Positions 51,563 to 63,795 of a stretch of DNA of 64,000 nucleotides are shown here, one piece after another. Numbering within the stretch: the stretch's first letter is position 1; each line of letters starts with the position of its first letter. Under the pieces are notes generated by a model that worked only from the letters and a program-made list of their open reading frames with translations, was not told the origin of the DNA and did no database searches. Source of the DNA: a virus (taxonomy: Duplodnaviria > Caudoviricetes); IMG/VR virus record IMGVR_UViG_3300021387_001034, positions 30,600-94,599 of that record. One strand, given 5' to 3'. Made by a program: the position numbers and the translations under genes.

Positions 51563-51633
51563 ATTTACAGAAGGTAAGGAAAGGAACTTACCTTCTGTGA
51601 ATAATTTTTCATTACATAAGGAGGTAATGAAGT

Positions 51634-51972
51634 ATGAAGTACTACGGTGAACGCACGAACCGTCTATACAATACTGAAAAGGAATGTATGGATGCTGAGT
51701 TCGCGGCAAAAGAACAGGAAAATCTAGCTAGAATTCAAAAAGAAAAGGCAGAAAGAGAACTAAAGGAGAAGAAAGAACAAGAAACAGCTCTTCGTAAAGA
51801 AGCCGCAATGAAGGTGGATGCGGCACGTAAGGCTTATCTAGAGGCGCAGAAAGCCTATCGTGAAGAGTTGGAATCTTTCTGTAAGACATACGGTACATAT
51901 CATTACAGTATTGATAATGCCGATGAAGTTCCTTCTCTATTTGATGTACTGAAGTATGCTTTTACTTGGTGA
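51634..51972 (+). CDS. coiled-coil hypothetical phage protein
   Basis: AGGAGG RBS. Confidence 0.85.
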   Translation: MKYYGERTNRLYNTEKECMDAEFAAKEQENLARIQKEKAERELKEKKEQETALRKEAAMKVDAARKAYLEAQKAYREELESFCKTYGTYHYSIDNADEVPSLFDVLKYAFTW

Positions 51973-52012: not shown

Positions 52013-52101
52013 AGCCCGTAGGTGTGTGGCTGCACGGGGGCTCTCTAAAAGCCCGGCTTCTGAGGCGAACGGACTGGGTTCGATTCCCAGGCGGGCTGCC
52101 A
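52013..52101 (+). tRNA. amber-suppressor tRNA (anticodon CUA), atypical long variable region
   Basis: AGCCCGT/GCGGGCT-G-CCA acceptor; GGGCT-CTCTAAA-AGCCC; CTGGG-TTCGATT-CCCAG; 19-nt variable region. Confidence 0.85.
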
Positions 52102-52108: not shown

Positions 52109-52181
52109 TCGGCACGAACAGCAATATTTTATAATTATTGTCACCATATTTATTGATAGCAGACAAACTATCCAGTGCCGA
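52109..52181 (+). ncRNA. CAGCAA-clamp element 1 (short cargo)
   Basis: TCGGCAC/GTGCCGA stem + ACAGCAA. Confidence 0.55.
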
Positions 52182-52187
52182 GCATAT

Positions 52188-52258
52188 GCACCATTGGTGT
52201 AAAGGTAACACAGGTGCCCTCCAAGCATCTGATGCCCGTTCAATCCGGGTATGGTGCT
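52188..52258 (+). tRNA. trnG: tRNA-Gly(UCC), C33
   Basis: cloverleaf; GGTGC-CCTCCAA-GCATC. Confidence 0.85.
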
Positions 52259-52260
52259 CT

Positions 52261-52612
52261 TGCTGGGGAGCAATAGAACCCAGGTGCCTTTCAGCCTGTT
52301 TCGCGAATAAATGGAAGGACGCAAGCAAGCACGTATGCTACTCGGGAGTCACTACCCCGTAAGCCAGCCTAGGATGACAGATGTGTGAGAGCCGGTGTTA
52401 GGCTACTATAGTAATATAACAACGAATTTAGTGTTCCGTAAAAACACTCATCTATCTCCGAGATGTTAAATTGGAGCGTAGTCACAACACGTTATATTGC
52501 GGGCACGGCGACGCCATACTTCGCCCGTGGTCGGGGAGTTGCGAACCCGCGGCCACACCTCCGTATCCCTATCAGGCTAACGCAATTAGTTTCTGAAATA
52601 TACGGAGTTTTT
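52261..52612 (+). ncRNA. candidate structured ncRNA(s) ending in a terminator
   Basis: GC-richer non-coding stretch with multiple stems (AGCCTA/TAGGCT, ATATAAC/GTTATAT, GTGGTCG/CGGCCAC, CTCCGTAT/ATACGGAG-T tract). Confidence 0.45.
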
Positions 52613-52615
52613 TAT

Positions 52616-52644
52616 TTGACTTTTAATAAAATTTCTGTTATAAT
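52616..52644 (+). promoter_or_regulatory. sigma-A/70-type promoter
   Basis: TTGACT-N17-TATAAT. Confidence 0.8.
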
Positions 52645-52667
52645 ATATATGTAAAGGGGATGAGAGT

Positions 52668-52925
52668 ATGGCTTTAGATAAGGCTATAAAATTCGGGAAA
52701 GAACACCGAAGACCATATCGCGGTTCAAAACGGATTGATTGTTCTTGCCGAAACCACGGTTCTTGTCCTTATTGCGAACAAAATCGCAAACATAAGTTTC
52801 TTGACTTGAAAGGAGAGCAGATGTTAGACGATTTTATTATGAATTTCTCTTGGGAAGAACTTGAGGCCGAAGAATGGTCTATTGAAGATTTGGAAAATGA
52901 TTATTTGACAAAAGAAGAAAATTAA
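52668..52925 (+). CDS. conserved phage hypothetical protein (KAIKFGKEHRRPYRGSK.IDCSCRNHGSCPYC)
   Basis: motif common in tRNA-rich phages. Confidence 0.85.
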   Translation: MALDKAIKFGKEHRRPYRGSKRIDCSCRNHGSCPYCEQNRKHKFLDLKGEQMLDDFIMNFSWEELEAEEWSIEDLENDYLTKEEN

Positions 52926-52933
52926 GGTATAAT
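52905..52933 (+). promoter_or_regulatory. sigma-A/70-type promoter
   Basis: TTGACA-N17-TATAAT. Confidence 0.75.
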
Positions 52934-52962
52934 AATTACGAAAGAAGGAAAGGAGAAAGAAA

Positions 52963-53148
52963 ATGGAAACGATTAGATTTTGGTATACTTTCGATGATAA
53001 GGATGGCGATATGTCCACTAGTGACATTGAAGTTAGCCTTTCTAATGAAGGCGGCGTAAATCTTGGAGAGGTTTGTGAAGCCTTCGCGCACTTCCTTGAA
53101 GCCGCAGGTTTCTGCGCCGAAAATTTGTCTGAATACTTCATCGACTAA
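52963..53148 (+). CDS. small acidic hypothetical protein
   Basis: AAGGAG RBS. Confidence 0.75.
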   Translation: METIRFWYTFDDKDGDMSTSDIEVSLSNEGGVNLGEVCEAFAHFLEAAGFCAENLSEYFID

Positions 53149-53151
53149 TAT

Positions 53152-53180
53152 TTGACTTTCAACAAAAATTATGATATAAT
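53152..53180 (+). promoter_or_regulatory. sigma-A/70-type promoter
   Basis: TTGACT-N17-TATAAT with TG. Confidence 0.8.
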
Positions 53181-53200
53181 AATTATGTTGAAAGGGCAGG

Positions 53201-53293
53201 AACGTAGTGTAGAGGTTCAAATCCTCTTGCGGTGGCTCAAAGTAACAAGTTAGTCGCTTGTGCTCGCCGCACGGATATAGGCGATACCGCGTT
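53201..53293 (+). ncRNA. circularly permuted tRNA-like RNA (no CAGCAA clamp)
   Basis: AACGT/GCGTT closing stem; T arm AGAGG-TTCAAAT-CCTCT first; closed acceptor-like stem TGCGGTG/CGCCGCA. Confidence 0.55.
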
Positions 53294-53325
53294 TGGCAAG
53301 ATGACTGCTTGCACTGTTTGTATGA

Positions 53326-53402
53326 CGGGCGCTAGCACAGTCGGTTAGTGCAGTGGTCTTATAAACCAAAGATGCAGAGTTCAAATCTCTGGCGCCCTAC
53401 CA
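53326..53402 (+). tRNA. trnI: tRNA-Ile(UAU), C1:U72 mismatch
   Basis: TGGT-CTTATAA-ACCA; CCA encoded. Confidence 0.85.
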
Positions 53403-53870
53403 CGTTGCTACCTTACCTGAGCAACTAAAATATAATGGGCAAGCGGTTAGGTGAGAAGGTATTTCTAGACTCCCCACACGCGGATGTCCGAGAACATCAA
53501 AAGGAGCCGGCTAGGACGCAGAAGATTGAATTGGTTATGCAACGCAGCGAGATGGCAGTGCAAACTATAGTACGCGTATGGGTTATAAGTTATCCTCGCC
53601 AAGGCGGAAAACTTAACGGCTGAAAAACGAGAGAAATATGGAGAAGGCTCCGTTTGGCTAGAAGTAGCTACCTAGACCAAAGTAAGTGGATTAGAAGAAC
53701 CGCGTTCTTCACCGCCCACTCCTCGTCACGATGTGTAGGCCACGCATAGGAGTAATAGGGAGCGAGTACGAATAACTCACATATGCCCGTACAGGACTAG
53801 TACTGTGGTCTGGTGAGTAGTAGCCAGCTATGCGCCGAGATAGGAGACTCGGTTATCAACTCTCCTTGTA
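53403..53870 (+). ncRNA. candidate large structured ncRNA (~470 nt)
   Basis: purine-rich non-coding stretch between tRNAs with many short stems; no RBS-led ORF. Confidence 0.45.
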
Positions 53871-53871
53871 T

Positions 53872-53942
53872 GCACCATTGATGTAGCGGCAACATAGCAC
53901 GTTGCCAACGTGTTTTCACCAGTTCAAGTCTGGTATGGTGCT
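53872..53942 (+). tRNA. trnG: tRNA-Gly(GCC)
   Basis: GCACG-TTGCCAA-CGTGT. Confidence 0.9.
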
Positions 53943-53945
53943 CAT

Positions 53946-54063
53946 TTAGACGGGTCAGCAATCGTTCTTTTGCATTGTAGAGCACGAGGTTCCAGGTTCA
54001 AGTCCTGGGTTGGGCCCTATGCCCAATTAGCTCAATTGGCAGAGCGCGTAATAGTCCGTCTAG
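53946..54063 (+). ncRNA. CAGCAA-clamp element 2 with circularly permuted tRNA (YrlA-like topology)
   Basis: TAGACGGG/TCCGTCTA + TCAGCAA; T arm CCAGG-TTCAAGT-CCTGG, closed acceptor GTTGGGC-CCTAT-GCCCAAT, D arm TAGCTC-AATTGGCA-GAGC. Confidence 0.85.
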
Positions 54064-54068
54064 TTTAT

Positions 54069-54141
54069 GCCCAAAGATAGTTTAAGCAGGAGAAAACAAC
54101 GCCAGTGGCGGGAGAGATGAGGTTCGAATCCTCTGAGGGTA
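54069..54141 (+). ncRNA. degenerate tRNA-like RNA without anticodon loop
   Basis: D arm GTTT/AAAC, CGCC-AGT-GGCG, T arm GAGG-TTCGAAT-CCTC. Confidence 0.45.
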
Positions 54142-54183
54142 TCGCGATTGTATCGGCAACTGATACATCTAGCAAGAAGTTGC

Positions 54184-54307
54184 GGCCGTATCTCAGGGTC
54201 AATCTGAGAAGAGGGAAAATATTAGTTTTGGGTTGCAGGTTCGACCCCTGCTGCACTGGGCAAAGCGCTCGGTGTAATCGAGAGGAATACCGCAAACTAA
54301 TACGGCT
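54184..54307 (+). ncRNA. permuted tRNA-like RNA (T arm then closed acceptor-like stem)
   Basis: TATTAGTTT/AAACTAATA closing stem; GCAGG-TTCGACC-CCTGC; TGCACTGGG/CTCGGTGTA. Confidence 0.55.
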
Positions 54308-54359
54308 TAGCTAGCCTTACCTCGGTCAGCTTGGTCGCGACAAGTTGACTTCTTTATAT

Positions 54360-54432
54360 CGCACCTAGGACAAACGGTTAAGTCACGGCGCTCATAACGC
54401 TTGAGGAATCGGTTCAACTCCGATAGGTGCCA
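54360..54432 (+). tRNA. tRNA with CAU anticodon (Met or Ile2), C1:C72 mismatch, A8
   Basis: GGCG-CTCATAA-CGCT; ATCGG-TTCAACT-CCGAT. Confidence 0.8.
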
Positions 54433-54525
54433 CACTCGGCTTAGGGTATCCCGCCTGAGCCATCATAGGAACACTATTAGCCGCCTGTTCCGCCTCATTT
54501 GAGGAACTTTGGGTAGGCAATATTT

Positions 54526-54596
54526 GGCCCCTTAGCTTAATGGTAAAGCGGGCGGCTGTTAACCGCTTGATGGGAGTCCGATTCTCTCAGGGGCCG
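54526..54596 (+). tRNA. trnN: tRNA-Asn(GUU), T-loop TCCGA
   Basis: GGCGG-CTGTTAA-CCGCT. Confidence 0.9.
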
Positions 54597-54660
54597 CTTT
54601 CGAAAGACACAGCGGTCATTCGATATTTTTCAGCAGGGCCGGAACCTCCCTGCTACCCTT

Positions 54661-54732
54661 GGCCTTATCGTATAGTGGTAATTACGTAGGCTTGTCACGC
54701 CTAAAACCGCAGTTCAATTCTGCGTAAGGTCG
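54661..54732 (+). tRNA. trnD: tRNA-Asp(GUC)
   Basis: TAGGC-TTGTCAC-GCCTA. Confidence 0.9.
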
Positions 54733-54782
54733 CTCCTATCATAATAACACACCTTCATTTGCACGGCGCGAAAGCGCCGCAT

Positions 54783-54854
54783 GCCCGATTGGACAATCGG
54801 TTAAGTCACGTGCCCTTCAAGCACGAGTGTCCAGTTCAACTCTGGGATCGGGTA
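54783..54854 (+). tRNA. trnE: tRNA-Glu(UUC), C33
   Basis: CGTGC-CCTTCAA-GCACG. Confidence 0.88.
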
Positions 54855-54860
54855 CTTTAG

Positions 54861-54921
54861 TAGACACCTACAGCAAACCTTTAGGAATAATTAGACATAA
54901 AATCTAATGAAGAGGTGTCTA
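54861..54921 (+). ncRNA. CAGCAA-clamp element 3 (anticodon-arm-like cargo)
   Basis: TAGACACCT/AGGTGTCTA + ACAGCAA; ATTAGA-CATAAAA-TCTAAT. Confidence 0.75.
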
Positions 54922-54924
54922 GAT

Positions 54925-55400
54925 TTTTGGTAGTATGCGCCGTTGGACCGCTCGGGGCCTGCCCCGGTCGAGGTTTTCTACCAAATGAAACGGACACTTG
55001 CATTTTCAATGGACGATGGCGGTAGCAAGTAAAAAACAGACCTTTCGCCCGCGCAATTGCTGACAACTGAGATGTGCGCGTTATAAATGTCGGAACTAGT
55101 TGTGCTCCGGTTTTACGGCTTTTATAAGATGGGAGCTAAAACAAAAGCCGCGGCGCGTGTACACGCTGTTTAAGGTTTCTCTTGGCCGCGGGGAAGTGCC
55201 TCGAAATCAAGAACCGCCGGTAACTTGCGGTATATAAAAAGAGCGATTACTCCCAATACATGAAAAACCGGGCGTTTCTAGAGCGCAGAGATAGTGCGGT
55301 AGAGGGTTGTATACTATCAAAATTACAGGAGTGATGAGAAGCTACTTCACTTAATACTCTGCTTGACCATAGACGTATGGCGAACGAATCCTGTATTTTT
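54925..55400 (+). ncRNA. candidate structured ncRNA(s)
   Basis: non-coding, many stems (TTTGGTAG/CTACCAAA, CGGCTTTT/AAAAGCCG, TACAGGA/TCCTGTA). Confidence 0.4.
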
Positions 55401-55410
55401 CTTATTTTGG

Positions 55411-55492
55411 CGGGATATGGTGTAACTGGCAGCCACACAGCACTTAAAATGCTGCGCTTTATAGCGTCCGGGTCCGAATCCCGGTATCCCGA
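55411..55492 (+). tRNA. trnL: tRNA-Leu(UAA), T-loop TCCGA
   Basis: CAGCA-CTTAAAA-TGCTG; long variable arm. Confidence 0.9.
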
Positions 55493-55496
55493 CTTC

Positions 55497-55520
55497 GCCC
55501 CATTAAAGTGGGGCATTTTC
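55497..55520 (+). terminator. intrinsic terminator
   Basis: GCCCCATT-AA-AGTGGGGC-ATTTT. Confidence 0.7.
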
Positions 55521-55538
55521 TATATGGAGTTGATGCAT

Positions 55539-55610
55539 ATGAAAAAACTCTTCTTTATTCCTATACTTATCCTTTTATTCCTCTTCCTAACAATGCGTAT
55601 CGCATACTGA
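55539..55610 (+). CDS. 23-aa hydrophobic peptide
   Basis: GGAG RBS; MKKLFFIPILILLFLFLTMRIAY. Confidence 0.45.
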   Translation: MKKLFFIPILILLFLFLTMRIAY

Positions 55611-55620
55611 GGTGATAACT

Positions 55621-55704
55621 ATGAGTTGGGGATTACTTATACTTGCTATATTTTTCATACTTGTAATTTTAAATGATTGTTATAATGGAACTCCGAAAAT
55701 CTAA
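55621..55704 (+). CDS. 27-aa hydrophobic peptide
   Basis: GAGGTG RBS; MSWGLLILAIFFILVILNDCYNGTPKI. Confidence 0.5.
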   Translation: MSWGLLILAIFFILVILNDCYNGTPKI

Positions 55705-55707
55705 TAT

Positions 55708-55736
55708 TTGACTTTTAATAAAAATTCTGTTATAAT
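55708..55736 (+). promoter_or_regulatory. sigma-A/70-type promoter
   Basis: TTGACT-N17-TATAAT with TG. Confidence 0.8.
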
Positions 55737-55863
55737 ATTAATGTACCAAGGGAGAAAAGCTACTTCCGGAAGTTACGGATGCCCGGTTAATCGTACGTAA
55801 GACTGGGGTCACGGCAGGATTGGTACAGAATACTTAGTGGGCCGTAACTATAAGTATTCAACA

Positions 55864-56119
55864 AACGGGCCGTAGGCTTAAAAGCAGCCATCGGTTAAAG
55901 AGTATCTCGCAACTAAGATTGTAGTGAGTAAGTTGGTAGAACCAACTAGCTAACAATCACATGTAGCCTCCCGCAGACCAAAGGCATGGTTAGGCGCTAC
56001 CGCTGTCGGTTAGAAGGGCTTCCTTCATAGTTAGTAATGACAATTCGTAGTACAATCGCGTTACTAGCTATCCGTCAAGTTGTACTACTGTGGAGATTTT
56101 GGCGTAGTAGCACACCGTT
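55864..56119 (+). ncRNA. 23S rRNA H43-H44 (uL11-binding GTPase-associated centre) mimic with large insert
   Basis: AACGG-GCCGTAGGCTTAAAAGCAGCCATCGGTTAAAGAGT [insert] GGCGTAGTAGCACA-CCGTT. Confidence 0.75.
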
Positions 56120-56123
56120 CTAT

Positions 56124-56199
56124 GCTCCTATCGTACAGCAGTCTAGTACAATCGCTTCGTAAGCGATAAACCTCGGCGCGCATCCGAGTAGGAGCTCCA
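56124..56199 (+). tRNA. trnT: tRNA-Thr(CGU), aberrant T-loop
   Basis: ATCGC-TTCGTAA-GCGAT; CCA encoded. Confidence 0.85.
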
Positions 56200-56223
56200 T
56201 TAAAAATTCTGAAAGGAAAAGTT

Positions 56224-56445
56224 ATGAAAAAGATTTATGTGGTTTTTATTGAGCGATATACTGATTGTGAATGCAGAAATTGGCGTATGGAAAGAGAATA
56301 TGTAAAAACGGATAATATTGCAGCATATATCGAATTAAAGAAAACACAGATTGAATCTCGTAGTTATTGGTGGATGGATTATTGTAAGGGCGCGGATGAC
56401 CGGCCCGATGTTAAAGCAGAAGAACTTGAGATTAAAGTATTTTAA
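56224..56445 (+). CDS. hypothetical protein
   Basis: AAAGGA RBS. Confidence 0.75.
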   Translation: MKKIYVVFIERYTDCECRNWRMEREYVKTDNIAAYIELKKTQIESRSYWWMDYCKGADDRPDVKAEELEIKVF

Positions 56446-56673
56446 TATACCAACGGACAAGGCTTAAGCGCATGATGTCTATATTGAGGAAGTTACTTGA
56501 AAGATAGAACATGCCTCGAATATAGATAAACAGGGCGGTGGGACGCGAGTGGTTGGTACTATTTCCCGACTAATGTCTAAGTCTTTTCGAGTTAATTGAT
56601 TCTCGGTTTCAGCCAACAGAAACAAGCGATGAGGTTTCCCTAGAGGGCGCCAAGAGTGGTCGGGATTTTATAT

Positions 56674-56759
56674 GCCAGAGTAAACCGTAAGTAGTAGCGG
56701 GTGCGACTGTAAATCGCATGTCAATGACTCGGGTGGGGCAGCTCCATCCTCTGGCACCA
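56674..56759 (+). tRNA. trnY: tRNA-Tyr(GUA)
   Basis: TGCGA-CTGTAAA-TCGCA; long variable arm; CCA. Confidence 0.85.
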
Positions 56760-56841
56760 GAACTCCGCAACCAGTAACGTGCTGGCCAATTCCACAAATA
56801 TTGCGGCAAGTTTTCGGGTTCTTGTCAAAAATCCCGTCCAT

Positions 56842-56915
56842 GCCTCTCTAATCCAACTGGCAGAGATGACACGCTCAAAACGTGTAAAGTGTGAGTCCGA
56901 ATCTCACGAGAGGTA
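56842..56915 (+). tRNA. trnL: tRNA-Leu(CAA), short variable loop, T-loop TCCGA
   Basis: ACACG-CTCAAAA-CGTGT. Confidence 0.85.
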
Positions 56916-57227
56916 CGATTGTTGTTCAGCTGACAACCCAGTGGATGGATTTGACGCATCCCATGCTACTACTGTGAGAGGGTTCACGCCTAGGCTTTGC
57001 ATGCGCACCACGACCCATGAAGGTAGCACCGCTAACATGGATTCGTGGGGACGATAAACTACCACCGGCAACAACTGAATTAGAGAAGCCAATTTAAGTG
57101 GCCCAATAAAGTTGTTGATATGTGGCTTAGTGGAAAGCGGTATATAAGAAAGCAAAGTAATGGTCTCCACCATCTCATGTACCAAGTGTACAAAGAGTTT
57201 CCGGATGCGTGGAAGCGCATCCTGCTT

Positions 57228-57299
57228 CTCCGGCTAGTCTAAGGGAAAGAACACGTGGCTACGGACCACGAAATCGGCGTTCAAATCGTCGGCTGGAGA
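57228..57299 (+). tRNA. trnR: tRNA-Arg(ACG)
   Basis: CGTGG-CTACGGA-CCACG. Confidence 0.88.
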
Positions 57300-57341
57300 C
57301 ATCGCGCGAAGGCGCAAATTCATTTTGGAGGTACCTATATT

Positions 57342-57881
57342 ATGAATGAACCCAGACTAAAAATCCTACCACCTTGGACAATTGTGGTACGTAAGCTAGA
57401 AGCTCTATTTGACGGTGACCCACTAATTGCTTTCAATGTGGACTTCAGCGGCGAGCATCCTTCTGTCGTTCTCGCTTGTAGCAACGGAGATAAGGTTGCT
57501 GCTCTTCAGCAGATTCTACCAGAAGAAGTTGGCTTTGGTAATATTAAGCTAAAGGTAATGGTGGATGGAGTCCCAAGCAATCGCGCTTTTAAGAGCAAGG
57601 TTGAACTATTTGATACTGCTTTCAAGGGGAATCCTGCTTATGCATATTCTGTATGCCCTGCAGAAGAAGGTTATCAGTGGATTGGTACTACATATGTTGT
57701 ATTTAACAACTGCGTGGTACAGTTCGCCGCCGATAATCTAAATGATTGCCATGGCGTTATTAGTACTCTATATGAAACAATTGCTAGTGAGCTTCTAACT
57801 GGCCCTGCAACCGAAGGCGTCTTCTTCAATACGAATGTTGAGCGCGCAGGACTTGGAATGCCGCTTGGTGAATGGCCCTAA
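57342..57881 (+). CDS. conserved phage hypothetical protein (VVQFAADNLNDCHG)
   Basis: GGAGG RBS before MNEPRL; the ORF-track start lies inside a tRNA. Confidence 0.85.
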   Translation: MNEPRLKILPPWTIVVRKLEALFDGDPLIAFNVDFSGEHPSVVLACSNGDKVAALQQILPEEVGFGNIKLKVMVDGVPSNRAFKSKVELFDTAFKGNPAYAYSVCPAEEGYQWIGTTYVVFNNCVVQFAADNLNDCHGVISTLYETIASELLTGPATEGVFFNTNVERAGLGMPLGEWP

Positions 57882-57977
57882 TTGACGAGTAATCGGGAAC
57901 AAGTTACCGTAGAAGACTTGCGCGCACAGCGGACCTGTAACGGGGAGAGGAGGTCGTAAATATCCCCTTTCCACTAT

Positions 57978-58050
57978 GCCGTTGTAGCTCAGCTGGTAGA
58001 GCACATCCTTGGTAAGGATGAGGTCGCCAGTTCAACTCTGGCCAGCGGCT
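57978..58050 (+). tRNA. trnT: tRNA-Thr(GGU)
   Basis: canonical cloverleaf. Confidence 0.95.
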
Positions 58051-58126
58051 CAATTGGGTAGTTTAAGTCAAAACCACGTGCTAGCCACCGTGATGTTGGG
58101 TCTGCGAACGGCGCCAACCCCTATAT

Positions 58127-58202
58127 GCCCGTTTAGCTCAGTTGGTAGAGTGCTTCCCTTACAAGGAAGATGTCGGCGGTTCAAGTCCGTCAGCGGGTAC
58201 CA
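58127..58202 (+). tRNA. trnV: tRNA-Val(UAC)
   Basis: CTTCC-CTTACAA-GGAAG; CCA. Confidence 0.93.
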
Positions 58203-58307
58203 AATCCCATAATCGCCAGGATAGTGTGGACCTATGGACGCCCTTTAAAGTTGTTCGCGGTAGTGGAATAACCTTCGCCGTGGCGAAGTAAAAGAGCCAC
58301 GGAATAT

Positions 58308-58379
58308 ACCTCTCTGGCGTAATGGTAGCGTCGCAGACTCTTAATCTGTCAGGTAGGGGTTCAAGTCCCCTGGGAGGTA
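58308..58379 (+). tRNA. trnK: tRNA-Lys(CUU)
   Basis: GCAGA-CTCTTAA-TCTGT. Confidence 0.9.
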
Positions 58380-58383
58380 CTTT

Positions 58384-58455
58384 GCTCGTGTAGCCAACCG
58401 GTAAGGCACTAGACTTTTAATCTAGGTACAGTGGGTTCAATTCCCACCACGGGCA
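58384..58455 (+). tRNA. trnK: tRNA-Lys(UUU)
   Basis: CTAGA-CTTTTAA-TCTAG. Confidence 0.9.
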
Positions 58456-58459
58456 CTAC

Positions 58460-58536
58460 GCCTCGTTAGTTCAGCGGAGTAGAACAACGGCCTTCTAAGC
58501 CGTGTGTCATAGGTTCAATTCCTATACGGGGTACCA
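58460..58536 (+). tRNA. trnR: tRNA-Arg(UCU)
   Basis: ACGGC-CTTCTAA-GCCGT; CCA. Confidence 0.93.
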
Positions 58537-58537
58537 T

Positions 58538-58612
58538 GTGGAATGTGATGAAATTGGTAGCCATGCTCGGCTGTGACCCGGGATTTTGCAGGTTCAAATC
58601 CTGTCGTTCCAC
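58538..58612 (+). tRNA. trnH: tRNA-His(GUG) with genomically encoded G-1:C73
   Basis: G-TGGAATG/CGTTCCA-C; CTCGG-CTGTGAC-CCGGG. Confidence 0.9.
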
Positions 58613-58639
58613 CTTAATTTTTGTTATATAGGTGATAAT

Positions 58640-59104
58640 ATGAAAGCATTAGTAGATAATTTCACTATTGAAGAATTAACACAAAAAGTAAAAGAATCTA
58701 ATTGCTGGAGAGATTTGGTATTAAAATTAGGATATAATTCTGATGGCGGCACTGGTTATAAAACTGTACGAAATCGTGTTGAAAAATATGGTATTGATAC
58801 TAGTCATTTTTATACTCAGGAAAAAATTGAACGCGCACCAGAAAATATATTTGTAGAAAATTCTACCGCTAATCAATCTGTATTACGTCGTTGGTATGTG
58901 AAAGGAAATTATACAGAATATAAATGCGCTATATGTGGATTACCACCAGAATGGCAAGGAAAACCATTGGTATTAACTCTAGACCATATTAATGGAAAAC
59001 ATAGAGATGATAGGTTAGAAAATCTTCGATGGGTATGTCCTAATTGTGATAGACAATTACCTACTTATTCTCGTGGCGCGGGAAGAGTAGATATGAAAGA
59101 ATAA
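58640..59104 (+). CDS. HNH homing endonuclease inserted in the tRNA array
   Basis: CAIC...LTLDHING...DDRLENLRWVCPNC. Confidence 0.9.
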   Translation: MKALVDNFTIEELTQKVKESNCWRDLVLKLGYNSDGGTGYKTVRNRVEKYGIDTSHFYTQEKIERAPENIFVENSTANQSVLRRWYVKGNYTEYKCAICGLPPEWQGKPLVLTLDHINGKHRDDRLENLRWVCPNCDRQLPTYSRGAGRVDMKE

Positions 59105-59118
59105 TTTTCTTTCATTAT

Positions 59119-59193
59119 GCCCAGGTAGCCAAATGGAAAGGCTGGAGACTGAAAATCTCCCACGCGGTGGTCCGATTCCACCCCTGGGCACCA
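59119..59193 (+). tRNA. trnF: tRNA-Phe(GAA), T-loop TCCGA
   Basis: GGAGA-CTGAAAA-TCTCC; CCA. Confidence 0.9.
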
Positions 59194-59197
59194 ATAT

Positions 59198-59226
59198 TTG
59201 ACTTTTAATATAAATTATATTATAAT
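59198..59226 (+). promoter_or_regulatory. sigma-A/70-type promoter
   Basis: TTGACT-N17-TATAAT. Confidence 0.8.
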
Positions 59227-59255
59227 TTATATGTAAGAAAGAAAGGAGCAATGAT

Positions 59256-59414
59256 ATGCTTATTGCAACAGATTATAGAGGTATTGAACTCGTAAAATGT
59301 TCAAACTGTGGTAAAATTTATCCTGTTGATGCGCATGGTTGCCCAGAATGTGGTTCTAATATTATAAGTTTGATATTGAAAGAGGAAGACAATGAGGAAT
59401 CCAAATCGTATTGA
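59256..59414 (+). CDS. 52-aa zinc-ribbon protein
   Basis: AAGGAG RBS; CSNCG...CPECG. Confidence 0.7.
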   Translation: MLIATDYRGIELVKCSNCGKIYPVDAHGCPECGSNIISLILKEEDNEESKSY

Positions 59415-59598
59415 TGAATTTTGTAACGAACTTAAGGCTCTTTGGCATCAAGTACCAGATTGGCGCTTTGGGCAGTTTATTTTTAATATGGAACGTGCCT
59501 GTCGTGTGAATACTGGAAGAGATGTATTTTTCCTTGAAGACGAAGAATTTTTTAAGTTTATGCGCGAATTTTTAAATGAAGTTACACAATCCACCTGA
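59392..59598 (+). CDS. conserved phage hypothetical protein (MRNPNRID...PDWRFGQ)
   Basis: recurrent phage motif. Confidence 0.85.
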   Translation: MRNPNRIDEFCNELKALWHQVPDWRFGQFIFNMERACRVNTGRDVFFLEDEEFFKFMREFLNEVTQST

Positions 59599-59790
59599 TA
59601 TGGCTGTGACTACAAGGCGCGGAAAGGTGGCGGCAATCTCTTACCCGAGCAAGTTGAAACGATATACACCCTTGGGATGAAAAGCCTTAATGAGCAAGAT
59701 AGAGATACCACGTGAGTTTACTGTATATATGTATGTGTAGTCGGTCTCCCTGTGGCCCGTTACGTAGTACGTTGGCACAGGGGAAGCTTC

Positions 59791-59867
59791 CGGGCATTAG
59801 CACAATTGGTGAGCGCGCAGTCCTGATAAGACTGAGGTTTCTGGTTCGATTCCAGAATGCCCGACCA
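59791..59867 (+). tRNA. trnI: tRNA-Ile(GAU)
   Basis: CAGTC-CTGATAA-GACTG; CCA. Confidence 0.93.
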
Positions 59868-59959
59868 CTTCTTATAATAGGAGTCATGACCTATTATAAG
59901 CGAGAAAGAAAACCAGGAAAACCGCGAAGCATCTCGTTAATCACTGCGGCGGTACGCGT

Positions 59960-60030
59960 AGGAGCGTAAGATAATGGTAGTCGCGCGGTCTCCAAAATCG
60001 CTCGTGTTGGTTCGAATCCAGCCGTTCCTG
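59960..60030 (+). tRNA. trnW: tRNA-Trp(CCA)
   Basis: GCGGT-CTCCAAA-ATCGC. Confidence 0.9.
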
Positions 60031-60034
60031 TATA

Positions 60035-60104
60035 AAGACCTGTCAGCAAGTATTTTTATCAAGTATTAGACTGTAAATCTAACCCGCTTCACAAAACAGG
60101 TCTT
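60035..60104 (+). ncRNA. CAGCAA-clamp element 4 carrying a Tyr(GUA)-like anticodon arm
   Basis: AAGACCTGT/ACAGGTCTT + CAGCAA; TTAGA-CTGTAAA-TCTAA. Confidence 0.8.
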
Positions 60105-60110
60105 GTTTAT

Positions 60111-60184
60111 GCCCGAATAATCGAATTGGCATAGGTATCCGGCTTAGAACCGGAGTTTTGGAGGTTCAAATCCTCTTTCGGGCA
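60111..60184 (+). tRNA. trnL: tRNA-Leu(UAG), short variable loop
   Basis: TCCGG-CTTAGAA-CCGGA. Confidence 0.88.
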
Positions 60185-60329
60185 CTACCTATCATTTCAA
60201 AAAGTTTTCCAGTAGGTGTCGTTATGGAAAGCCTCTCGCTATGGTTAATGGTTCAAATTCTGCCAGCAATAAAGCAATAGAGATCCCGCATGGTGAAAGC
60301 GCGCCAATAGGATGCTCAGCGAGTTATAT

Positions 60330-60404
60330 GGGCTTGTAGTTTAATGGCCAGAACAGTTGGTTTGCACCCAGCAGATGAGGTTTCGATTACCTCCAGGTCC
60401 ACCA
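60330..60404 (+). tRNA. trnA: tRNA-Ala(UGC)
   Basis: G3:U70; GTTGG-TTTGCAC-CCAGC; CCA. Confidence 0.92.
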
Positions 60405-60429
60405 TAATAATAAAAAAGAGGAAAGTAAA

Positions 60430-61554
60430 ATGAATGTAATTAATGCTGGAAGTCGTTATCAAATTTATGGAGAAGATGTTAAGACTTATACTCAATTGCC
60501 GGTGGGAACGTACCTTGTCAATTTTAGCCAAATGTCAGGGCACTATCTTTCTATCCGTCATGATTTGACAGTTACCGAGGAAAAAATCTATGGTAATAGT
60601 ATTGAAAAGGTAAAGAAAGTTATGCGTTCTTATAATCTAATGAACCGTAATTTTGGTGTACTTCTTTCTGGCCAGAAGGGAATTGGTAAGAGTCTATTCG
60701 TAAGGCTTCTGGCGCGAGAGGGTATCGCCGCGGGATTGCCTGTTATTACTGTTACCGAATCTGTTCCTGGAATTGCAAATTTTCTTTCTTCAATTGAGCA
60801 AGATTGCATTGTAGTATTCGATGAATTTGAAAAAACTTTTACAATCAATGATGAAGAAAACCAGCAAGATGAATTGCTTTCTCTATTTGATGGTATGGAT
60901 GGCGGCCATAAGCTTTTCATTGTTACCTGTAACAACCTTGAGCAGATAAGTCAGTATATGCTAAACCGGCCTGGCCGTTTCCATTATCATTTTACTATGA
61001 TGCCGCCTACACCAGATGAAGTAAGAGAATATATGGAAGATCAACTTCTTCCTGCATATAAAAACAATATTCATGATATTGTTAATTTGGCAAATGTTGT
61101 TGATATGCCTTATGATTATCTGCGCGCAATTGCTTTTGAACTGAATCAGGGATATTCTCTAAGAGAAGCAATGTCAGACCTTAATATTACTCGTACCGAT
61201 ACTACGCGTTTTGATATTATTGTCTTTCTTAGTAATGGGCTTCGTTTTGAAGAATGGAATTATACCATTGACTTTAATGAGCATGAAAGACAATACTTCC
61301 GTGTGCGGCGCTATGACAAAGATAATTATCCTCATGACTTTTCACTTGGCCTTGATTTGTCCAAGGCTCAAATCGCCGATGGCGATTTTGTAATGACAGA
61401 AGGATTCACTCAGCCACATTGGGATAGTTACGATTTTGAAGGCTCAGAAGAAGAGTGCGATAAATTGGCACGCGAATGGAACGATAATGTTGAGATAACC
61501 AAGGTTGTCCTTCATAAGGTAGCTTGCGCTAACGTTGCGAGGTATATGGTATGA
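60430..61554 (+). CDS. AAA+ ATPase
   Basis: Walker A GQKGIGKS, Walker B VVFDEFEK, NRPGRF arginine finger. Confidence 0.92.
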   Translation: MNVINAGSRYQIYGEDVKTYTQLPVGTYLVNFSQMSGHYLSIRHDLTVTEEKIYGNSIEKVKKVMRSYNLMNRNFGVLLSGQKGIGKSLFVRLLAREGIAAGLPVITVTESVPGIANFLSSIEQDCIVVFDEFEKTFTINDEENQQDELLSLFDGMDGGHKLFIVTCNNLEQISQYMLNRPGRFHYHFTMMPPTPDEVREYMEDQLLPAYKNNIHDIVNLANVVDMPYDYLRAIAFELNQGYSLREAMSDLNITRTDTTRFDIIVFLSNGLRFEEWNYTIDFNEHERQYFRVRRYDKDNYPHDFSLGLDLSKAQIADGDFVMTEGFTQPHWDSYDFEGSEEECDKLAREWNDNVEITKVVLHKVACANVARYMV

Positions 61555-61579
61555 GAATGGAAGATGGAGGATATTAATT

Positions 61580-61990
61580 ATGAAGAAATATCCGGTAATA
61601 ACTCTGTGCGGCTCAACGAAGTTTAAGGAGGATTTTGAGCGTGTTAATAGAGAACTTACCTTGGCTGGCAACATTGTTATTAGTGTTGGTGCTTTTGGTC
61701 ACGCTGGCGATGTCTTCTCGGATGATCAAAAAGTAATGCTTGATGATATTCATAAGCGAAAAATTGATATGGCCGATGAAATTTTTGTAATAAATAAAAA
61801 TGGCTATATTGGCGCCAGTACGCGTAGCGAAATTGAATATGCTAAAGATCATGGCAAGCCAGTTAATTATATGGAACCGGTTTGCCATTCTTGGCGCAAG
61901 TTTAATGATGGTTGGTTTGACTATTATTATAATACTGCAACAGGTGAACAAAAGTTACACCTTGATGCAGATGATATTGAAGTTGACTAA
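61580..61990 (+). CDS. DUF4406 / nucleoside-deoxyribosyltransferase-like protein
   Basis: ITLCGSTKF...HKRKIDMADEIFVIN..GYIG.STRSEIEYA. Confidence 0.8.
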   Translation: MKKYPVITLCGSTKFKEDFERVNRELTLAGNIVISVGAFGHAGDVFSDDQKVMLDDIHKRKIDMADEIFVINKNGYIGASTRSEIEYAKDHGKPVNYMEPVCHSWRKFNDGWFDYYYNTATGEQKLHLDADDIEVD

Positions 61991-61991
61991 T

Positions 61992-62078
61992 GGCCACTTA
62001 ACTAGTAAAGTTACTAGGCCCGCCTCGAAAGCGGTGCGCGCTGAAAGGCGTGGGGAGCGGTACCTCAGGTGGTCGCCA
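61992..62078 (+). tRNA. trnS: tRNA-Ser(CGA), unusual D and T loops
   Basis: CCGC-CTCGAAA-GCGG; long variable arm; G73 CCA. Confidence 0.8.
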
Positions 62079-62103
62079 TTATATATTAAATGGAGTGATA
62101 TAT

Positions 62104-62352
62104 ATGCGTAGTACTGCCGAAAAACGCCATAATGATTGGAAAAAGGCTATACGTAAACGGAAAATTGTTGAAGAAGTATACAAATGGCCTGAAGGATGGT
62201 ACGATAATCTTCATCAGTACTCCAAGAATAAAATATATTGTTCATGCCCTTTATGTCGCGGTTTAACTAAGCATGGTGAAAATACAATTTCCGATAAGCG
62301 CAAACTTGAAGAAATGAAAGATCAAATGCTTGACAATGATGAAAATTTATGA
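62104..62352 (+). CDS. basic hypothetical protein with CSCPLC
   Basis: GGAG RBS before MRSTAEKRH. Confidence 0.8.
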   Translation: MRSTAEKRHNDWKKAIRKRKIVEEVYKWPEGWYDNLHQYSKNKIYCSCPLCRGLTKHGENTISDKRKLEEMKDQMLDNDENL

Positions 62353-62358
62353 TATAAT
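62330..62358 (+). promoter_or_regulatory. sigma-A/70-type promoter
   Basis: TTGACA-N17-TATAAT with TG. Confidence 0.75.
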
Positions 62359-62538
62359 TATTACAGAAAGAGAGATAAGAGTAGAATTAAGAGGCAACAT
62401 GATTGAGCTTGCAAAACATATGTAAATCATCTCCTTTCTTTCCCGTCATGGTTGGTCATTACTGGTTCGATTCCAGTGTCGGGCGGTCTGATAGCCAGGC
62501 CCGTTAAAATAGGCTTTCGCGGCAAAAGCCGCATTTAT

Positions 62539-62611
62539 CGAGAATGTAGTGTAATCTGGTAACACGGGTGCTTCGGGAGCACCAGTTGCGGTTCAAATCC
62601 GACATTTTCGA
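62539..62611 (+). tRNA. trnP: tRNA-Pro(CGG), apparent 8-bp acceptor and short T stem
   Basis: GGTGC-TTCGGGA-GCACC; CGAGAATG/CATTTTCG. Confidence 0.8.
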
Positions 62612-62616
62612 CTTTG

Positions 62617-62717
62617 TAGATAGTAACAGCAATATAACAGTATGTCGCTGGTTCGAGTCCAGTCCCACCCGTTCGGATGGGTAGCTCAATTGGTAGAGCA
62701 ATTGTCGATGCTATCTA
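62617..62717 (+). ncRNA. CAGCAA-clamp element 5 with circularly permuted tRNA (YrlA-like topology)
   Basis: TAGATAGTA/TGCTATCTA + ACAGCAA; T arm GCTGG-TTCGAGT-CCAGT, closed acceptor CCCACCC-GTTC-GGATGGG, D arm TAGCTC-AATTGGTA-GAGC. Confidence 0.87.
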
Positions 62718-62721
62718 GTTG

Positions 62722-62816
62722 TAGGCCATTACAGCAATTTTATAATAAAGGTTGAAGAAAATTTTTTGATGTTAAAATTTTTGAGAAGGTTCAATTCCTT
62801 CATTTTAAATGGCCTA
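62722..62816 (+). ncRNA. CAGCAA-clamp element 6 with T-arm cargo
   Basis: TAGGCCATT/AATGGCCTA + ACAGCAA; GAAGG-TTCAATT-CCTTC. Confidence 0.8.
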
Positions 62817-62825
62817 GCTTTTTAT

Positions 62826-62934
62826 TAGACCAAACAGCAATGTAATCTGCTCTTAGCAGAAGTAGTATAAGGGTAGTACATTTACCGTAAAAAGTAAAAG
62901 ATTGTGGTTCGAATCCGCACTTTAATTTGGTCTA
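62826..62934 (+). ncRNA. CAGCAA-clamp element 7 with non-permuted D/anticodon/T cargo
   Basis: TAGACCAAA/TTTGGTCTA + CAGCAA; TAGTATAAGGGTAGTAC, TTTAC/GTAAA, TGTGG-TTCGAAT-CCGCA. Confidence 0.8.
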
Positions 62935-63152
62935 GCATTATTTGAATAGAATATACATGAAGTTCATGTATATCACTAGATTGCCGCGTTGGTGAGTTAA
63001 ATCCTGTACCCTTGTATCAGAAATGAGAAACTCGGATAGGTTCAGCAGGATAGGACGAAATAAAAGGGTATTAGAATAAGTCCCAGACCTTTTTGAAAGA
63101 GGCAGAGTAGTATCTGCAACTCTTCCGCGGCGTTTTTTTCATTGGAGGAAAT

Positions 63153-63368
63153 ATGTATACATTAGAGGATGGAACGCAAGTAGATGGCATTATTGACAAA
63201 ATACAAATGCCAAATGGAAAAGTATATGCACTTCAATGTAAATTGATTGAAGCACATCCAATTACTTGTCCTAAATGCGGCAGTACATTTGAATTATCAT
63301 TCGGGCACGGTAGGTGCGATTTTTGCGGTACGTATTTTACTACTGAATTTAAGATTACTGAAGTTTAA
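63153..63368 (+). CDS. zinc-ribbon protein
   Basis: GGAGG RBS; CPKC...CDFC. Confidence 0.8.
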   Translation: MYTLEDGTQVDGIIDKIQMPNGKVYALQCKLIEAHPITCPKCGSTFELSFGHGRCDFCGTYFTTEFKITEV

Positions 63369-63371
63369 TAT

Positions 63372-63458
63372 GACACTATGGCGGAATGGTAACGCACCTG
63401 ATTGCTAATCAGAGGTTACTTGTAAAAGGGTATGCACGTTCGAGCCGTGCTAGTGTCG
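63372..63458 (+). tRNA. trnS: tRNA-Ser(GCU)
   Basis: CTGA-TTGCTAA-TCAG; long variable arm. Confidence 0.88.
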
Positions 63459-63461
63459 CGT

Positions 63462-63599
63462 ATGCGGTGGTGGAATAGGTAGACACAAGTGCTTGAAGGG
63501 AGAGACTGTTTGGTAACCCACTTCACAAGAAGGGTTGACTTACGCCCATCAAAAGGTAAGCGGCAGGCAAATATGCAAGGTGCAAATCCTTGTCCGCAT
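63462..63599 (+). ncRNA. tRNA-Leu-like shell with anticodon arm replaced by ~85-nt insert
   Basis: ATGCGG/CCGCAT; TGGTGGAATAGGTAGACAC; GCAAGG-TGCAAAT-CCTTGT. Confidence 0.7.
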
Positions 63600-63623
63600 T
63601 AAATAATAGTTTAAATTAGTATA

Positions 63624-63758: not shown

Positions 63759-63795
63759 CTTTGAATTAATTAACAATGTAAATGGATGCGATAAA

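Follow-up and report, generated by a model that had tools for sequence, protein, structure and literature searches.

In the tRNA gene array of a gut or rumen Caudoviricetes phage we identified seven small elements that are probably genes for Y-RNA-like RNAs, each with a common handle that would be held by a Ro60-fold protein and a variable part that would display a piece of tRNA. The array lies in a 64,000-nt stretch (the window) of IMG/VR record IMGVR_UViG_3300021387_001034, the final 64 kb of a 94.6-kb contig with a completeness rating of 52%, and runs from 52 kb to the end of the window with 26 tRNA calls, all on the + strand. The architecture of the RNAs, the covariation of their stems, their spread in other phages, their linkage to a gene for a Ro60-fold protein and the modelled fold of that protein were established directly.

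Seven elements share a closing helix and the hexamer CAGCAA

We scanned the contig for CAGCAA located 0–4 nt after a strand that pairs with a strand 40–160 nt downstream. Within the array the scan returned exactly seven elements (E1 to E7), all on the + strand, with CAGCAA starting at positions 52119, 53956, 54871, 60044, 62627, 62732 and 62835. All seven consist of a closing helix of 7–9 bp (the clamp), 0–3 nt, CAGCAA and a tRNA-derived cargo, and each lies 3–9 nt downstream of a tRNA or of the preceding element. Six have clamps of 8–9 bp with a 5′ start of UAGR or AAGA; E1 is the exception, with 7 bp and a 3-nt gap before the hexamer. The clamp is present in all seven minimum-free-energy folds (z −2.6 to −3.9). 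An initial annotation had described seven elements in which a terminal stem, different in sequence from copy to copy and still paired, precedes CAGCAA. The scan recovered all seven, with 7–9 bp clamps in every fold; six of the annotated starts are exact, and E2 begins at 53947 rather than 53946. One-letter variants of the hexamer with a clamp yielded no additional copies in the array. The remaining hits of the exact-hexamer scan, all outside the array, are 7–8 bp stems that are chance-like in appearance.

The cargos are the tRNA parts that had been proposed for them. E1 (52109–52181, 73 nt, z −3.68), 8 nt downstream of the tRNA(CUA) described below, has the clamp TCGGCAC/GTGCCGA followed by GAA and CAGCAA (52119–52124), and an A/U-rich cargo with an anticodon-arm-like hairpin of 5 bp and an 8-nt loop. 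E2 (53947–54062, 116 nt) has a clamp of 7 bp plus one G·U pair and a permuted tRNA-like cargo, composed of a T arm, a 7-bp acceptor stem with a 5-nt closing loop and a D arm, with neither an anticodon loop nor CCA. The 9-bp clamp of E3 (54861–54921, 61 nt, z −3.24) is followed by A, CAGCAA and a single anticodon-arm-like hairpin (stem UUAGA/UCUAA, loop CAUAAAA), which places it in the short stem-loop-only class that is the most frequent in the family. E4 (60035–60104, 70 nt, z −2.90) has a 9-bp clamp, no gap before CAGCAA, and an anticodon stem-loop with the loop CUGUAAA of the Tyr GUA type. E5 (62617–62717, 101 nt, z −2.79), whose 9-bp clamp includes one G·U pair, carries the same permuted order as E2 (T arm, loop-closed acceptor, D arm) and no anticodon loop; a 5-bp anticodon-stem-like helix (ACAGU/AUUGU) runs on into the clamp. 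E6 (62722–62816, 95 nt, z −3.92) combines a 9-bp clamp with an A/U-rich cargo that ends in a T arm (GAAGG UUCAAUU CCUUC), 6 nt from the 3′ clamp strand. E7 (62826–62934, 109 nt, z −3.32) has a 9-bp clamp in the position of the acceptor stem, a 6-bp hairpin after CAGCAA, and then a D arm, an anticodon arm with an 8-nt loop and a T arm. ARAGORN reads E7 as 'tRNA-???' with the four-letter anticodon taaa, and its cargo scores 38.5 bits on the tRNA model (RF00005), above the gathering score, with the acceptor pairs flagged as non-standard.

The score of E7, the perfect Tyr anticodon loop of E4 and the absence of any call for tRNA-Tyr, tRNA-Cys or tRNA-Gln in the window would suit unusual working tRNA genes (permuted, armless or with a four-letter anticodon), with E4, for example, as the missing tRNA-Tyr. 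RNase P can open the YrlA RNA of M. smegmatis, to which CCA is then added (PMC4201824). We nevertheless regard this explanation as very improbable, as E2 and E5 lack any anticodon loop, E1, E3 and E4 are without D arm, T arm and acceptor end, and E7 has non-standard acceptor pairs and a loop of 8 nt. None of the seven elements combines a paired acceptor, a 7-nt anticodon loop and a free 3′ end, and a splicing-endonuclease-type junction is not evident. The identical handle bears any tRNA part in relatives, and the closest relative (contig L108) has ordinary tRNA-Cys and tRNA-Gln genes elsewhere in its array.

Orthologues of individual elements were found in related contigs. E1 is the weakest copy, yet it has an orthologue in L022 with a cargo identity of 89% and one compensatory stem change (A-U to G-C). 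The orthologues of E2 have three changed stem pairs in L045 and five in L085, and pairing is kept in all of them. E6 has orthologues in L108 (two compensatory stem pairs) and L035, and E7 in L108 and L147. The L035 orthologue of E6 reads ACAGCAT in place of ACAGCAA; the final A of the hexamer is therefore not absolutely fixed, and scans for the exact hexamer undercount the family.

The handle RNA family in other phages

We searched IMG/VR with a pattern consisting of CAGCAA, a T-arm core and a D-arm core, with no stem requirement, and found 95 phage loci. A clamp of 6–11 bp and of varied sequence is present in 91 of the 96 matches. In these loci and the window together (907 kb), 280 of the 969 CAGCAA sites (29%) have a clamp of at least 8 bp, as compared to 2.5–4.4% for nine control hexamers. 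Clamping at CAGCAA thus occurs at 7–10 times the frequency of the control hexamers and exceeds chance. There are 225 distinct elements in the 907 kb and 364 after the addition of further phage loci. Homologues of the seven elements are plentiful beyond this genome.

Copies number 1–12 per genome and are scattered among tRNA arrays. Their cargos fall into four classes that are seen repeatedly across phages: short elements of 53–75 nt with one hairpin, which are the most frequent; permuted T-acceptor-D domains, often with a complete anticodon arm ahead of the T arm; D-anticodon-T bodies closed by the clamp rather than by an acceptor stem; and elements with a T arm only. Among the bare anticodon loops of the family CUUUUAA (Lys UUU) is the most frequent, followed by Asn GUU and others. 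The handle itself has a clamp of 7–10 bp with a purine-rich outer 5′ strand and free inner pairs, 0–3 variable nt (with A at −1 in 64% of copies), the hexamer and then ~8 G-poor positions. A conserved G/UG-UU follows the 3′ clamp strand.

Covariation was measured on an alignment of 29 permuted members, including E2 (alignment A4), for which RNAalifold predicted a consensus with the clamp, T arm, sealed acceptor and D arm. Two-sided changes occur at 17 of the 23 consensus pairs, including 7 of 7 clamp pairs, and the covariation score is 0.75 vs 0.20 in shuffles, of which 0 of 500 reached the observed value. Paired cells amount to 97.4% vs 69.9% in shuffles, a percentage that is inflated because the element ends were set by best pairing, which does not affect the diversity of pair types. 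When the partners are slid by 1–3 columns only 31–46% pair. The MAFFT alignment of the short class (A3) is out of register at the 3′ strand; for this reason no covariance model was built for that class, and anchored scans with control hexamers were used instead. A count of compensatory changes based on cargo-only BLAST was likewise discarded, because gap-length shifts misaligned many flanks, in favor of the per-element orthologues and the permuted alignment.

Handle RNAs are linked to DUF2828 genes

Pfam family PF11443 (DUF2828) has no match in the contig of the window. An exact match to the 71-aa product of 63153–63365 led to a complete 185,479-bp ENA contig (L128) that is 99.99% identical to window positions 53153–64000 and extends past the window end. 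This contig encodes a 494-aa protein with both PF11443 and PF25043 (DUF7788) domains (E ≤ 1e-5), at the window equivalent of 69165–70649 on the + strand. The gene shares the orientation of the handle RNAs; it lies 5.2 kb past the window end, downstream of E7 and E1 by 6.2 and 17 kb, respectively. Its orthologue in G050, the closest complete IMG/VR relative (72% identity in a neighboring ATPase), has Pfam scores of 91.5 and 143.5 bits and lies ~6 kb after the orthologues of E6 and E7.

PF11443 is present in 33 of 49 records that contain clamped elements, and a family profile added three divergent homologues, which brings the records with a DUF2828-type gene to 14 of the 16 with a completeness of 90% or more. 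The Pfam TROVE domain was found in none of the 49 records, nor in the contig of the window. The initial annotation had proposed a Ro60/TROVE- or DUF2828-like partner and suggested a search for TROVE, DUF2828 and RtcB genes. The DUF2828 half of that proposal stands, in that such a gene co-occurs with the handle RNAs in unrelated phages and its product has a modelled Ro60 fold; TROVE is not seen, and RtcB is present in one of five complete relatives.

We also approached the linkage from the protein side with 80 loci selected by the DUF2828 protein alone (34–80% identity), which are partly related to one another and to the first set. These loci contain 154 clamped CAGCAA on the strand of the gene and 13 on the opposite strand, with 3–30 for control hexamers. 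Handles are densest in the first kilobase 5′ of the gene, and in ~20 loci one lies no more than 125 nt away.

Terminal inverted repeats in several copies per genome are also what miniature mobile elements or recombination sites would look like at the level of DNA, without any RNA. It is scarcely credible that this accounts for the handle elements. The G·U pairs arise only when the + strand is read, the orientation relative to neighboring genes is strictly biased (154 vs 13), and no target-site duplications or transposase genes were seen. The arms diverge among copies and pairing is kept, which is the reverse of what is expected of transposase sites.

Loci of cultured phages provide a more independent test of co-occurrence. 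By tblastn, 711 of 50,697 cultured phage records (~1.4%, as compared to 14 of the 16 near-complete records above) have a DUF2828 homologue, including Felix O1, Listeria phages A511 and P100 and many mycobacteriophages, and thousands of metagenomic phages also carry one. We studied 11 cultured loci, from phages of Actinobacteria, Firmicutes, Proteobacteria and Fusobacteria, and eight of them have 1–5 handle RNAs within ~600 nt of the gene. In all 11, the sites with a clamp are 23 of 41 CAGCAA on the + strand and 3 of 19 on the − strand (controls 1–9). Mycobacteriophage DuncansLeg has three handle RNAs immediately 3′ of a gene annotated as 'Ro-like RNA binding protein', Listeria phage A511 has three immediately 5′ of gp57, and Escherichia phage wV8 (Felix O1 type) has four interspersed with tRNAs just downstream of the gene. 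There are five near the gene in Bacillus phage 2S-4, three in Staphylococcus phage S-CoN_Ph8, two in Campylobacter phage F370, and one each in Enterococcus phage VRE9_3 and Fusobacterium phage phiKSUM. Phage T5, with 25 tRNAs, has no DUF2828 homologue and no clamped CAGCAA in its array.

These positions bear on the possibility that the clamps are processing punctuation of the tRNA transcript, cut by RNase III, E, P or Z with no dedicated protein, and that the cargos are the debris of decayed tRNAs. We consider this unlikely. All copies in the window are flanked by tRNAs or further copies, with the 3′ end of a tRNA only a few nt away, most tRNAs of this phage have no encoded CCA and therefore need 3′ processing, and the G/UG-UU past the 3′ strand resembles an RNase E-type site. 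The elements of A511, DuncansLeg and the Staphylococcus, Campylobacter and Fusobacterium phages, however, adjoin the DUF2828 gene and do not lie between tRNAs, and the tRNA array of T5 has none. Nor would a double-strand RNase site need an invariant single-stranded hexamer, and cargos such as the Lys-UUU stem-loop and the sealed T-acceptor-D domain show conservation and covariation, which argues that they are not decaying.

The proposed partner protein has a predicted Ro60 fold

An AlphaFold (AF2) model of the 494-aa protein, based on an 18-sequence alignment, has a predicted local distance difference test score of 81.6 and shows helical repeats followed by an alpha/beta domain. In a Foldseek search of the PDB, Ro60 structures from Thermus phage phiLo, Xenopus, human and Deinococcus take all of the first 11 places, with E-values of 1e-6 to 5e-5. 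With VIA-align, 411 of the 494 residues align to 1yvr with a Z score of 18.2 and a root-mean-square deviation of 4.6 Å, as compared to a Z score of at most 11.4 for structures that match in the vWA domain only. At the level of sequence the protein has no match in the PDB. The model thus predicts the architecture of Ro60, a HEAT-repeat ring with a vWA domain, for the DUF2828/DUF7788 protein. A search of the Protein Atlas returned viral DUF2828 clusters only, with none from eukaryotes.

The gene order past the window, all on the + strand, is PTH2, an AAA_33/KTI12-type kinase, a Metallophos_2 phosphoesterase, DUF4406 and the DUF2828+DUF7788 gene, followed 3′ by an RlaP nucleotidyltransferase and DUF5662 and then, after another 3.8 kb, by an RNA ligase of the PF09414/PHA02142 type. 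Of five complete relatives searched, three (G050, G022 and G018) have an RNA_ligase match 2–6 kb from the DUF2828 gene, although the match in G022 and the match nearest the gene in G018 are under the Pfam cut-off. RtcB, found in only one of five complete relatives, was rejected as the linked ligase, which belongs to the RNA_ligase/PHA02142 type. A Thg1-like 3′-5′ nucleotidyltransferase, a further enzyme for tRNA repair or editing, is encoded in the window at 8271–9053 on the + strand (PF04446, 103.9 bits). Together with the neighborhood of the DUF2828 gene it constitutes a tRNA repair and maintenance kit, and we liken this gene neighborhood to the RNA-repair modules of jumbo phages (PMC7824862).

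Comparison with known RNA families

In the window only ordinary tRNAs and a cow-rumen-4 RNA reach Rfam gathering scores, and no described family accounts for the handle RNAs. The nearest is YrlA (RF02553, gathering score 69). In E-value mode E5 aligns with its model end to end at 42.7 bits and E2 partly, over positions 23–88, at 30.5 bits; E1, E3, E4, E6 and E7 have no match at E-values up to 5–10. The YrlA alignments agree with the earlier suggestion that the order of T arm, loop-closed acceptor and D arm in E2 and E5 is the YrlA topology. YrlA RNAs are defined by a tRNA-like domain, a 5′-proximal GNCGAAN0-1G motif and a Ro60 gene within ~4 kb (PMC4201824). The tRNA-like domain is found in E2 and E5 only. 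The Ro-binding motif GNCGAAN0-1G is counted as absent because the alignment of E5 puts GAUAGUAA opposite ggCgaAUG of the model; (A)CAGCAA stands just beyond in all seven elements, and recognition would therefore differ from the known contacts of Ro60 with Y RNAs. No TROVE gene lies on the same strand within ~4 kb, the Ro60-fold DUF2828 gene being 6.2 kb after E7.

The handle RNAs resemble YrlA and YrlB in that the 5′ and 3′ ends pair to form a stem, which in YrlA and YrlB is the protein handle. E2 and E5 also share with YrlA the conserved letters of the T and D loops and an optional additional hairpin ahead of the T arm. As in the Salmonella rsr-yrlBA-rtcBA operon, they are on the same strand as a gene for a Ro60-fold protein, with RNA-repair genes nearby. 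The differences from YrlA are the (A)CAGCAA handle, the DUF2828/DUF7788 protein and a cargo that is mostly a bare anticodon stem-loop.

Canonical YrlA-type Y RNAs served by a Ro60 (TROVE/Rsr) of the host rather than by a phage protein would explain the alignments of E5 and E2, and gut Bacteroides do have TROVE proteins (a control search matched B. thetaiotaomicron). We judge this to be quite unlikely, because both scores are far under 69, ACAGCAA takes the place of GNCGAAN0-1G (PMC4201824), and five of the seven elements are without a YrlA-type tRNA domain; across phages the handle follows the DUF2828 gene, with TROVE in 0 of 49 records. A ring protein encoded by the phage is also known from Thermus phage phiLo, whose Ro60 binds phage Y-like RNAs and the PNPase of the host (PMC12135203). 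There, as proposed here, the partner RNAs (Yrl1 and Yrl2) lie beside the gene for a phage Ro60-fold ring (PMC12135203; PDB 9L5Y, 9KOP). The phiLo Ro60, a proposed hijacker of host PNPase, is among the best structural matches of the DUF2828/DUF7788 protein. Unlike the system described here, it is a TROVE protein, and for its RNAs, which have CGAA in a stem-bulge-stem, no likeness to parts of tRNA is described.

The hexamer had initially been thought to match no known family, a view that does not hold in full: CAGCAA ends the 11-nt motif of the dictyostelid Class I RNAs (PMC5054030, PMC7919456). These are RNAs of 42–65 nt whose ends are joined by a 6-bp covarying stem, and they start with AAG and end with CUGU (PMC7919456, PMC5054030). 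Their motif CCTTACAGCAA is located directly 3′ of the 5′ strand, with C6, C9, A10 and A11 nearly invariant (PMC5054030). Shared with the phage elements are the covarying stem that joins the ends, a motif ending in CAGCAA right after the 5′ strand and a variable remainder, and many phage copies also have the AAG-like start and the CUG(U)-like end. The phage elements have only the last six letters of CCTTACAGCAA. Class I RNAs differ in being encoded by eukaryotic nuclear genes with a DUSE promoter, in five extra conserved letters before CAGCAA, and in their binder, the RRM protein Rnp1A/CIBP; their cargo is not known as tRNA-like. On the Class I model (RF01414, gathering threshold 41.5) the best element, E6, scores 13.0 bits (E 0.98). 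Given the shared architecture and final six letters, but a model score of only 13 bits, we record a resemblance and not membership.

Small RNAs of another kind are embedded in the tRNA region of T5 (L234, NC_005859 30284–33949), where they are annotated as 'stable RNAs with unknown functions'; some of them (RNA1, RNA2 and RNA3) are tRNA-like. Phage T4 has counterparts of them. Like the handle RNAs, the T5 RNAs are small, have no known function and are embedded in a phage tRNA array, with which they are co-transcribed, as is proposed for the handle RNAs. They have no CAGCAA handle and are a second, separate family.

For one relative of the partner protein there is an experimental phenotype. The protein gp130 of Bas63, a Felixounavirus (Felix O1 type), is Ro60-like and counters the Ppl defense system (PhageMaP preprint, PMC11482910). 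The authors of that study assigned the phenotype to the protein and guessed that Y RNAs might be among the 'tRNAs' adjoining gp130, without identifying RNAs or a handle (PMC11482910). The gene for gp130 lies directly upstream of tRNA genes (PMC11482910), as does that for gp047, the DUF2828 homologue of wV8; the two are likened by description and position, not by sequence.

Self-cleaving ribozymes of the kinds located at tRNA 3′ ends (HDV-like theta, hatchet, hammerhead, twister and pistol) had no Rfam match at E-values up to 5–10. By eye, the first and last nucleotides of the elements pair together, which is not the order of the nested double pseudoknot (P1-P2-P3-P1.1) of HDV-like ribozymes.

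Phage Ro60 proteins and tRNA-like Y RNAs have been described before, and annotations ('Ro-like RNA binding protein') already reflect that DUF2828-type phage proteins are Ro-like. In Rfam and the searchable literature we found no description of an RNA family with a CAGCAA handle, of modular cargo made of tRNA parts, of the linkage to DUF2828 or of the likeness to Class I RNAs.

Proposed function of the handle RNAs

In the established Ro60/Y-RNA paradigm the ring binds the terminal stem of a small RNA, and another module of the RNA gates the ring or tethers an enzyme such as PNPase. The bacterial YrlA RNA has a tRNA-like module (PMC4201824). By analogy, we propose that the DUF2828 ring holds the RNAs by the clamp and CAGCAA, with the cargo as the effector module. 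We infer transcription, processing, binding of the handle by the protein and a role as bait or adaptor as follows. The handle RNAs would be co-transcribed with the phage tRNAs from early sigma-70-type promoters and then excised from the array. The closing helix, (A)CAGCAA and the G-poor linker would be gripped by the DUF2828+DUF7788 ring, and the cargo (a bare anticodon stem-loop, a T arm, a D/anticodon/T body or a sealed T-acceptor-D domain) would serve as the effector. Such RNA-protein particles would present tRNA look-alikes to enzymes that recognize tRNA. They might be baits for host anticodon nucleases and other tRNA-directed defense effectors, or adaptors that carry such enzymes or damaged tRNA to the ring protein and the neighboring RNA-repair enzymes. 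It is unusual that one phage encodes a set of such RNAs with differing tRNA parts.

tRNA-Lys(UUU) is a classic target of anticodon nucleases. The display of anticodon loops, most often Lys-UUU, points to a conflict between phage and host over tRNA. The repair genes around the DUF2828 gene and the Ppl phenotype of Bas63 gp130 lead us to favor mimics of tRNA mounted on a protein, which would be a new strategy alongside tRNA replacement and repair in a very active field (PrrC, PARIS, retrons and tRNA-supplying phages).

Several points weigh against seven Y-RNA-like RNAs held by a Ro60-fold protein. The partner gene is outside the window and known only through a near-identical contig. The gene is missing from two of the 16 near-complete records that matched the pattern; one of these two, G042, has only a doubtful clamp. 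Three of the 11 cultured phages (Milchi, GAP32 and D484) have the gene and no handle RNA within 3 kb; all three are large gammaproteobacterial phages, and the gaps flanking the gene contain no evident handle variant. The linkage could partly reflect joint placement in the early tRNA-rich region of related phages, since many of the IMG/VR loci are relatives and some contigs are in both sets. The missing YrlA motif and the inflated pairing percentage of the permuted alignment belong here as well.

Should the handle RNAs prove to be what DUF2828 proteins work with, this domain of unknown function would acquire an RNA partner and with it a role that can be tested. Many 'odd', 'pseudo' and 'undetermined' tRNA calls in phage arrays would be reinterpreted, and the RNAs would be a way into the mechanism of the Ppl counter-defense homologue (PMC11482910). 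For the Class I RNAs, whose molecular function has been open since 2004, the phage system supplies a concrete candidate type of partner.

A broader extension is offered tentatively. Stem-plus-CAGCAA might be the universal ligand of the DUF2828-type Ro60 paralogues, in an ancient, uncatalogued ribonucleoprotein family whose reach would extend from phages that infect at least four bacterial phyla to social amoebae with their Class I RNAs. The cargo slot in phages would then be a programmable display of tRNA parts, each RNA baiting or recruiting one enzyme that acts on tRNA (PrrC-, RloC- or PARIS-type anticodon nucleases, tRNases linked to retrons, or enzymes of modification and repair), for modular counter-defense or for guidance of tRNA repair.

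Putative promoters and TAG recoding in the tRNA array

Seven near-consensus sigma-70-type promoters, identified by consensus match only, are interspersed in the array, on the + strand throughout. Four of them precede handle RNAs. The promoter at 51534–51562 (11 of 12 matches, 17-nt spacer, TG extension) is upstream of the unit of tRNA(CUA) and E1, that at 53152–53180 (11/12) is upstream of the unit of E2 and E3, and that at 59198–59226 (11/12) is upstream of the unit of tRNA-Trp and E4. A promoter with 12 of 12 matches at 62330–62358 is located ~260 nt upstream of tRNA-Pro and the E5-E6-E7 cluster. A cow-rumen-4 RNA (RF02948) at 51565–51630 on the + strand, with 67.7 bits vs a gathering score of 48.5, comes directly after the first of these promoters and just before an open reading frame (ORF) at 51634–51972, and it looks like a 5′ leader element.

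This phage uses TAG as a sense codon. Reading TAG as Q opens frames of 3269 aa (12815–22624, 23 TAG) and 2790 aa (34860–43232, 27 TAG), both on the + strand. The tRNA(CUA) at 52013–52101 on the + strand, with a long variable arm and an encoded CCA, is labeled Pyl by ARAGORN and scores 29.2 bits on the tRNA-Sec model; it is probably the suppressor behind the recoding. In-frame TAG is nearly absent from the array region and the DUF2828 gene cluster, as expected for the early genes of a code-switching phage. A megablast search of cultured phages with the array as query gave no match.

Other RNA-like features in the array

Long ORF-poor stretches on the + strand lie between tRNAs (52260–52600, 53403–53870, 54925–55405, 55750–56120, 56200–56840 and others), with a somewhat raised G+C content of 0.46–0.52 vs 0.33–0.43 in nearby coding DNA. 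None of them has an Rfam match, and the fold of 53403–53870 is no better than that of shuffles (z −0.15). At 55868–55910 on the + strand, in an ORF-free stretch of the array, we observed a weak match to large-subunit (LSU) rRNA (22.1 bits, E 0.002) that covers positions 1096–1145 of the bacterial model, in the region of the GTPase-associated center. This LSU-like stretch is perhaps a further mimic of RNA. The 115-nt spacer between tRNA-Val and tRNA-Lys(CUU) at 58193–58307 (+) is 95.7% identical to L108 5517–5632, which is above the conservation of the neighboring tRNAs (82–94%) and the ATPase gene (78%), and it may be a further small RNA.

Tandem tRNA-like shells are found on the + strand at 63462–63599, 63624–63758 and 63987–64000. 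They have in common the class-II-type D arm GGAAUAGGUAGAC, and they have a T arm with the loop UGCAAAU and ~85–90 nt where an anticodon arm is expected. Neither ARAGORN, with or without introns, nor Rfam called them. In L128, ARAGORN -i finds a tRNA at 10959–11118 (window equivalent 64111–64270) with an 86-nt insertion in the anticodon loop, less than a group I intron requires; its counterpart in L108, tRNA-Gln(UUG) at 12997–13070, has no interruption. Further tRNA-like pieces on the + strand (53201–53293, 54067–54262 and 62440–62504) bear T arms without a CAGCAA handle and are not called as tRNAs. The T arms at ~54115–54131 and ~54230–54246 lie within a stretch that has pairable ends (UGCCCA...UGGGCA).

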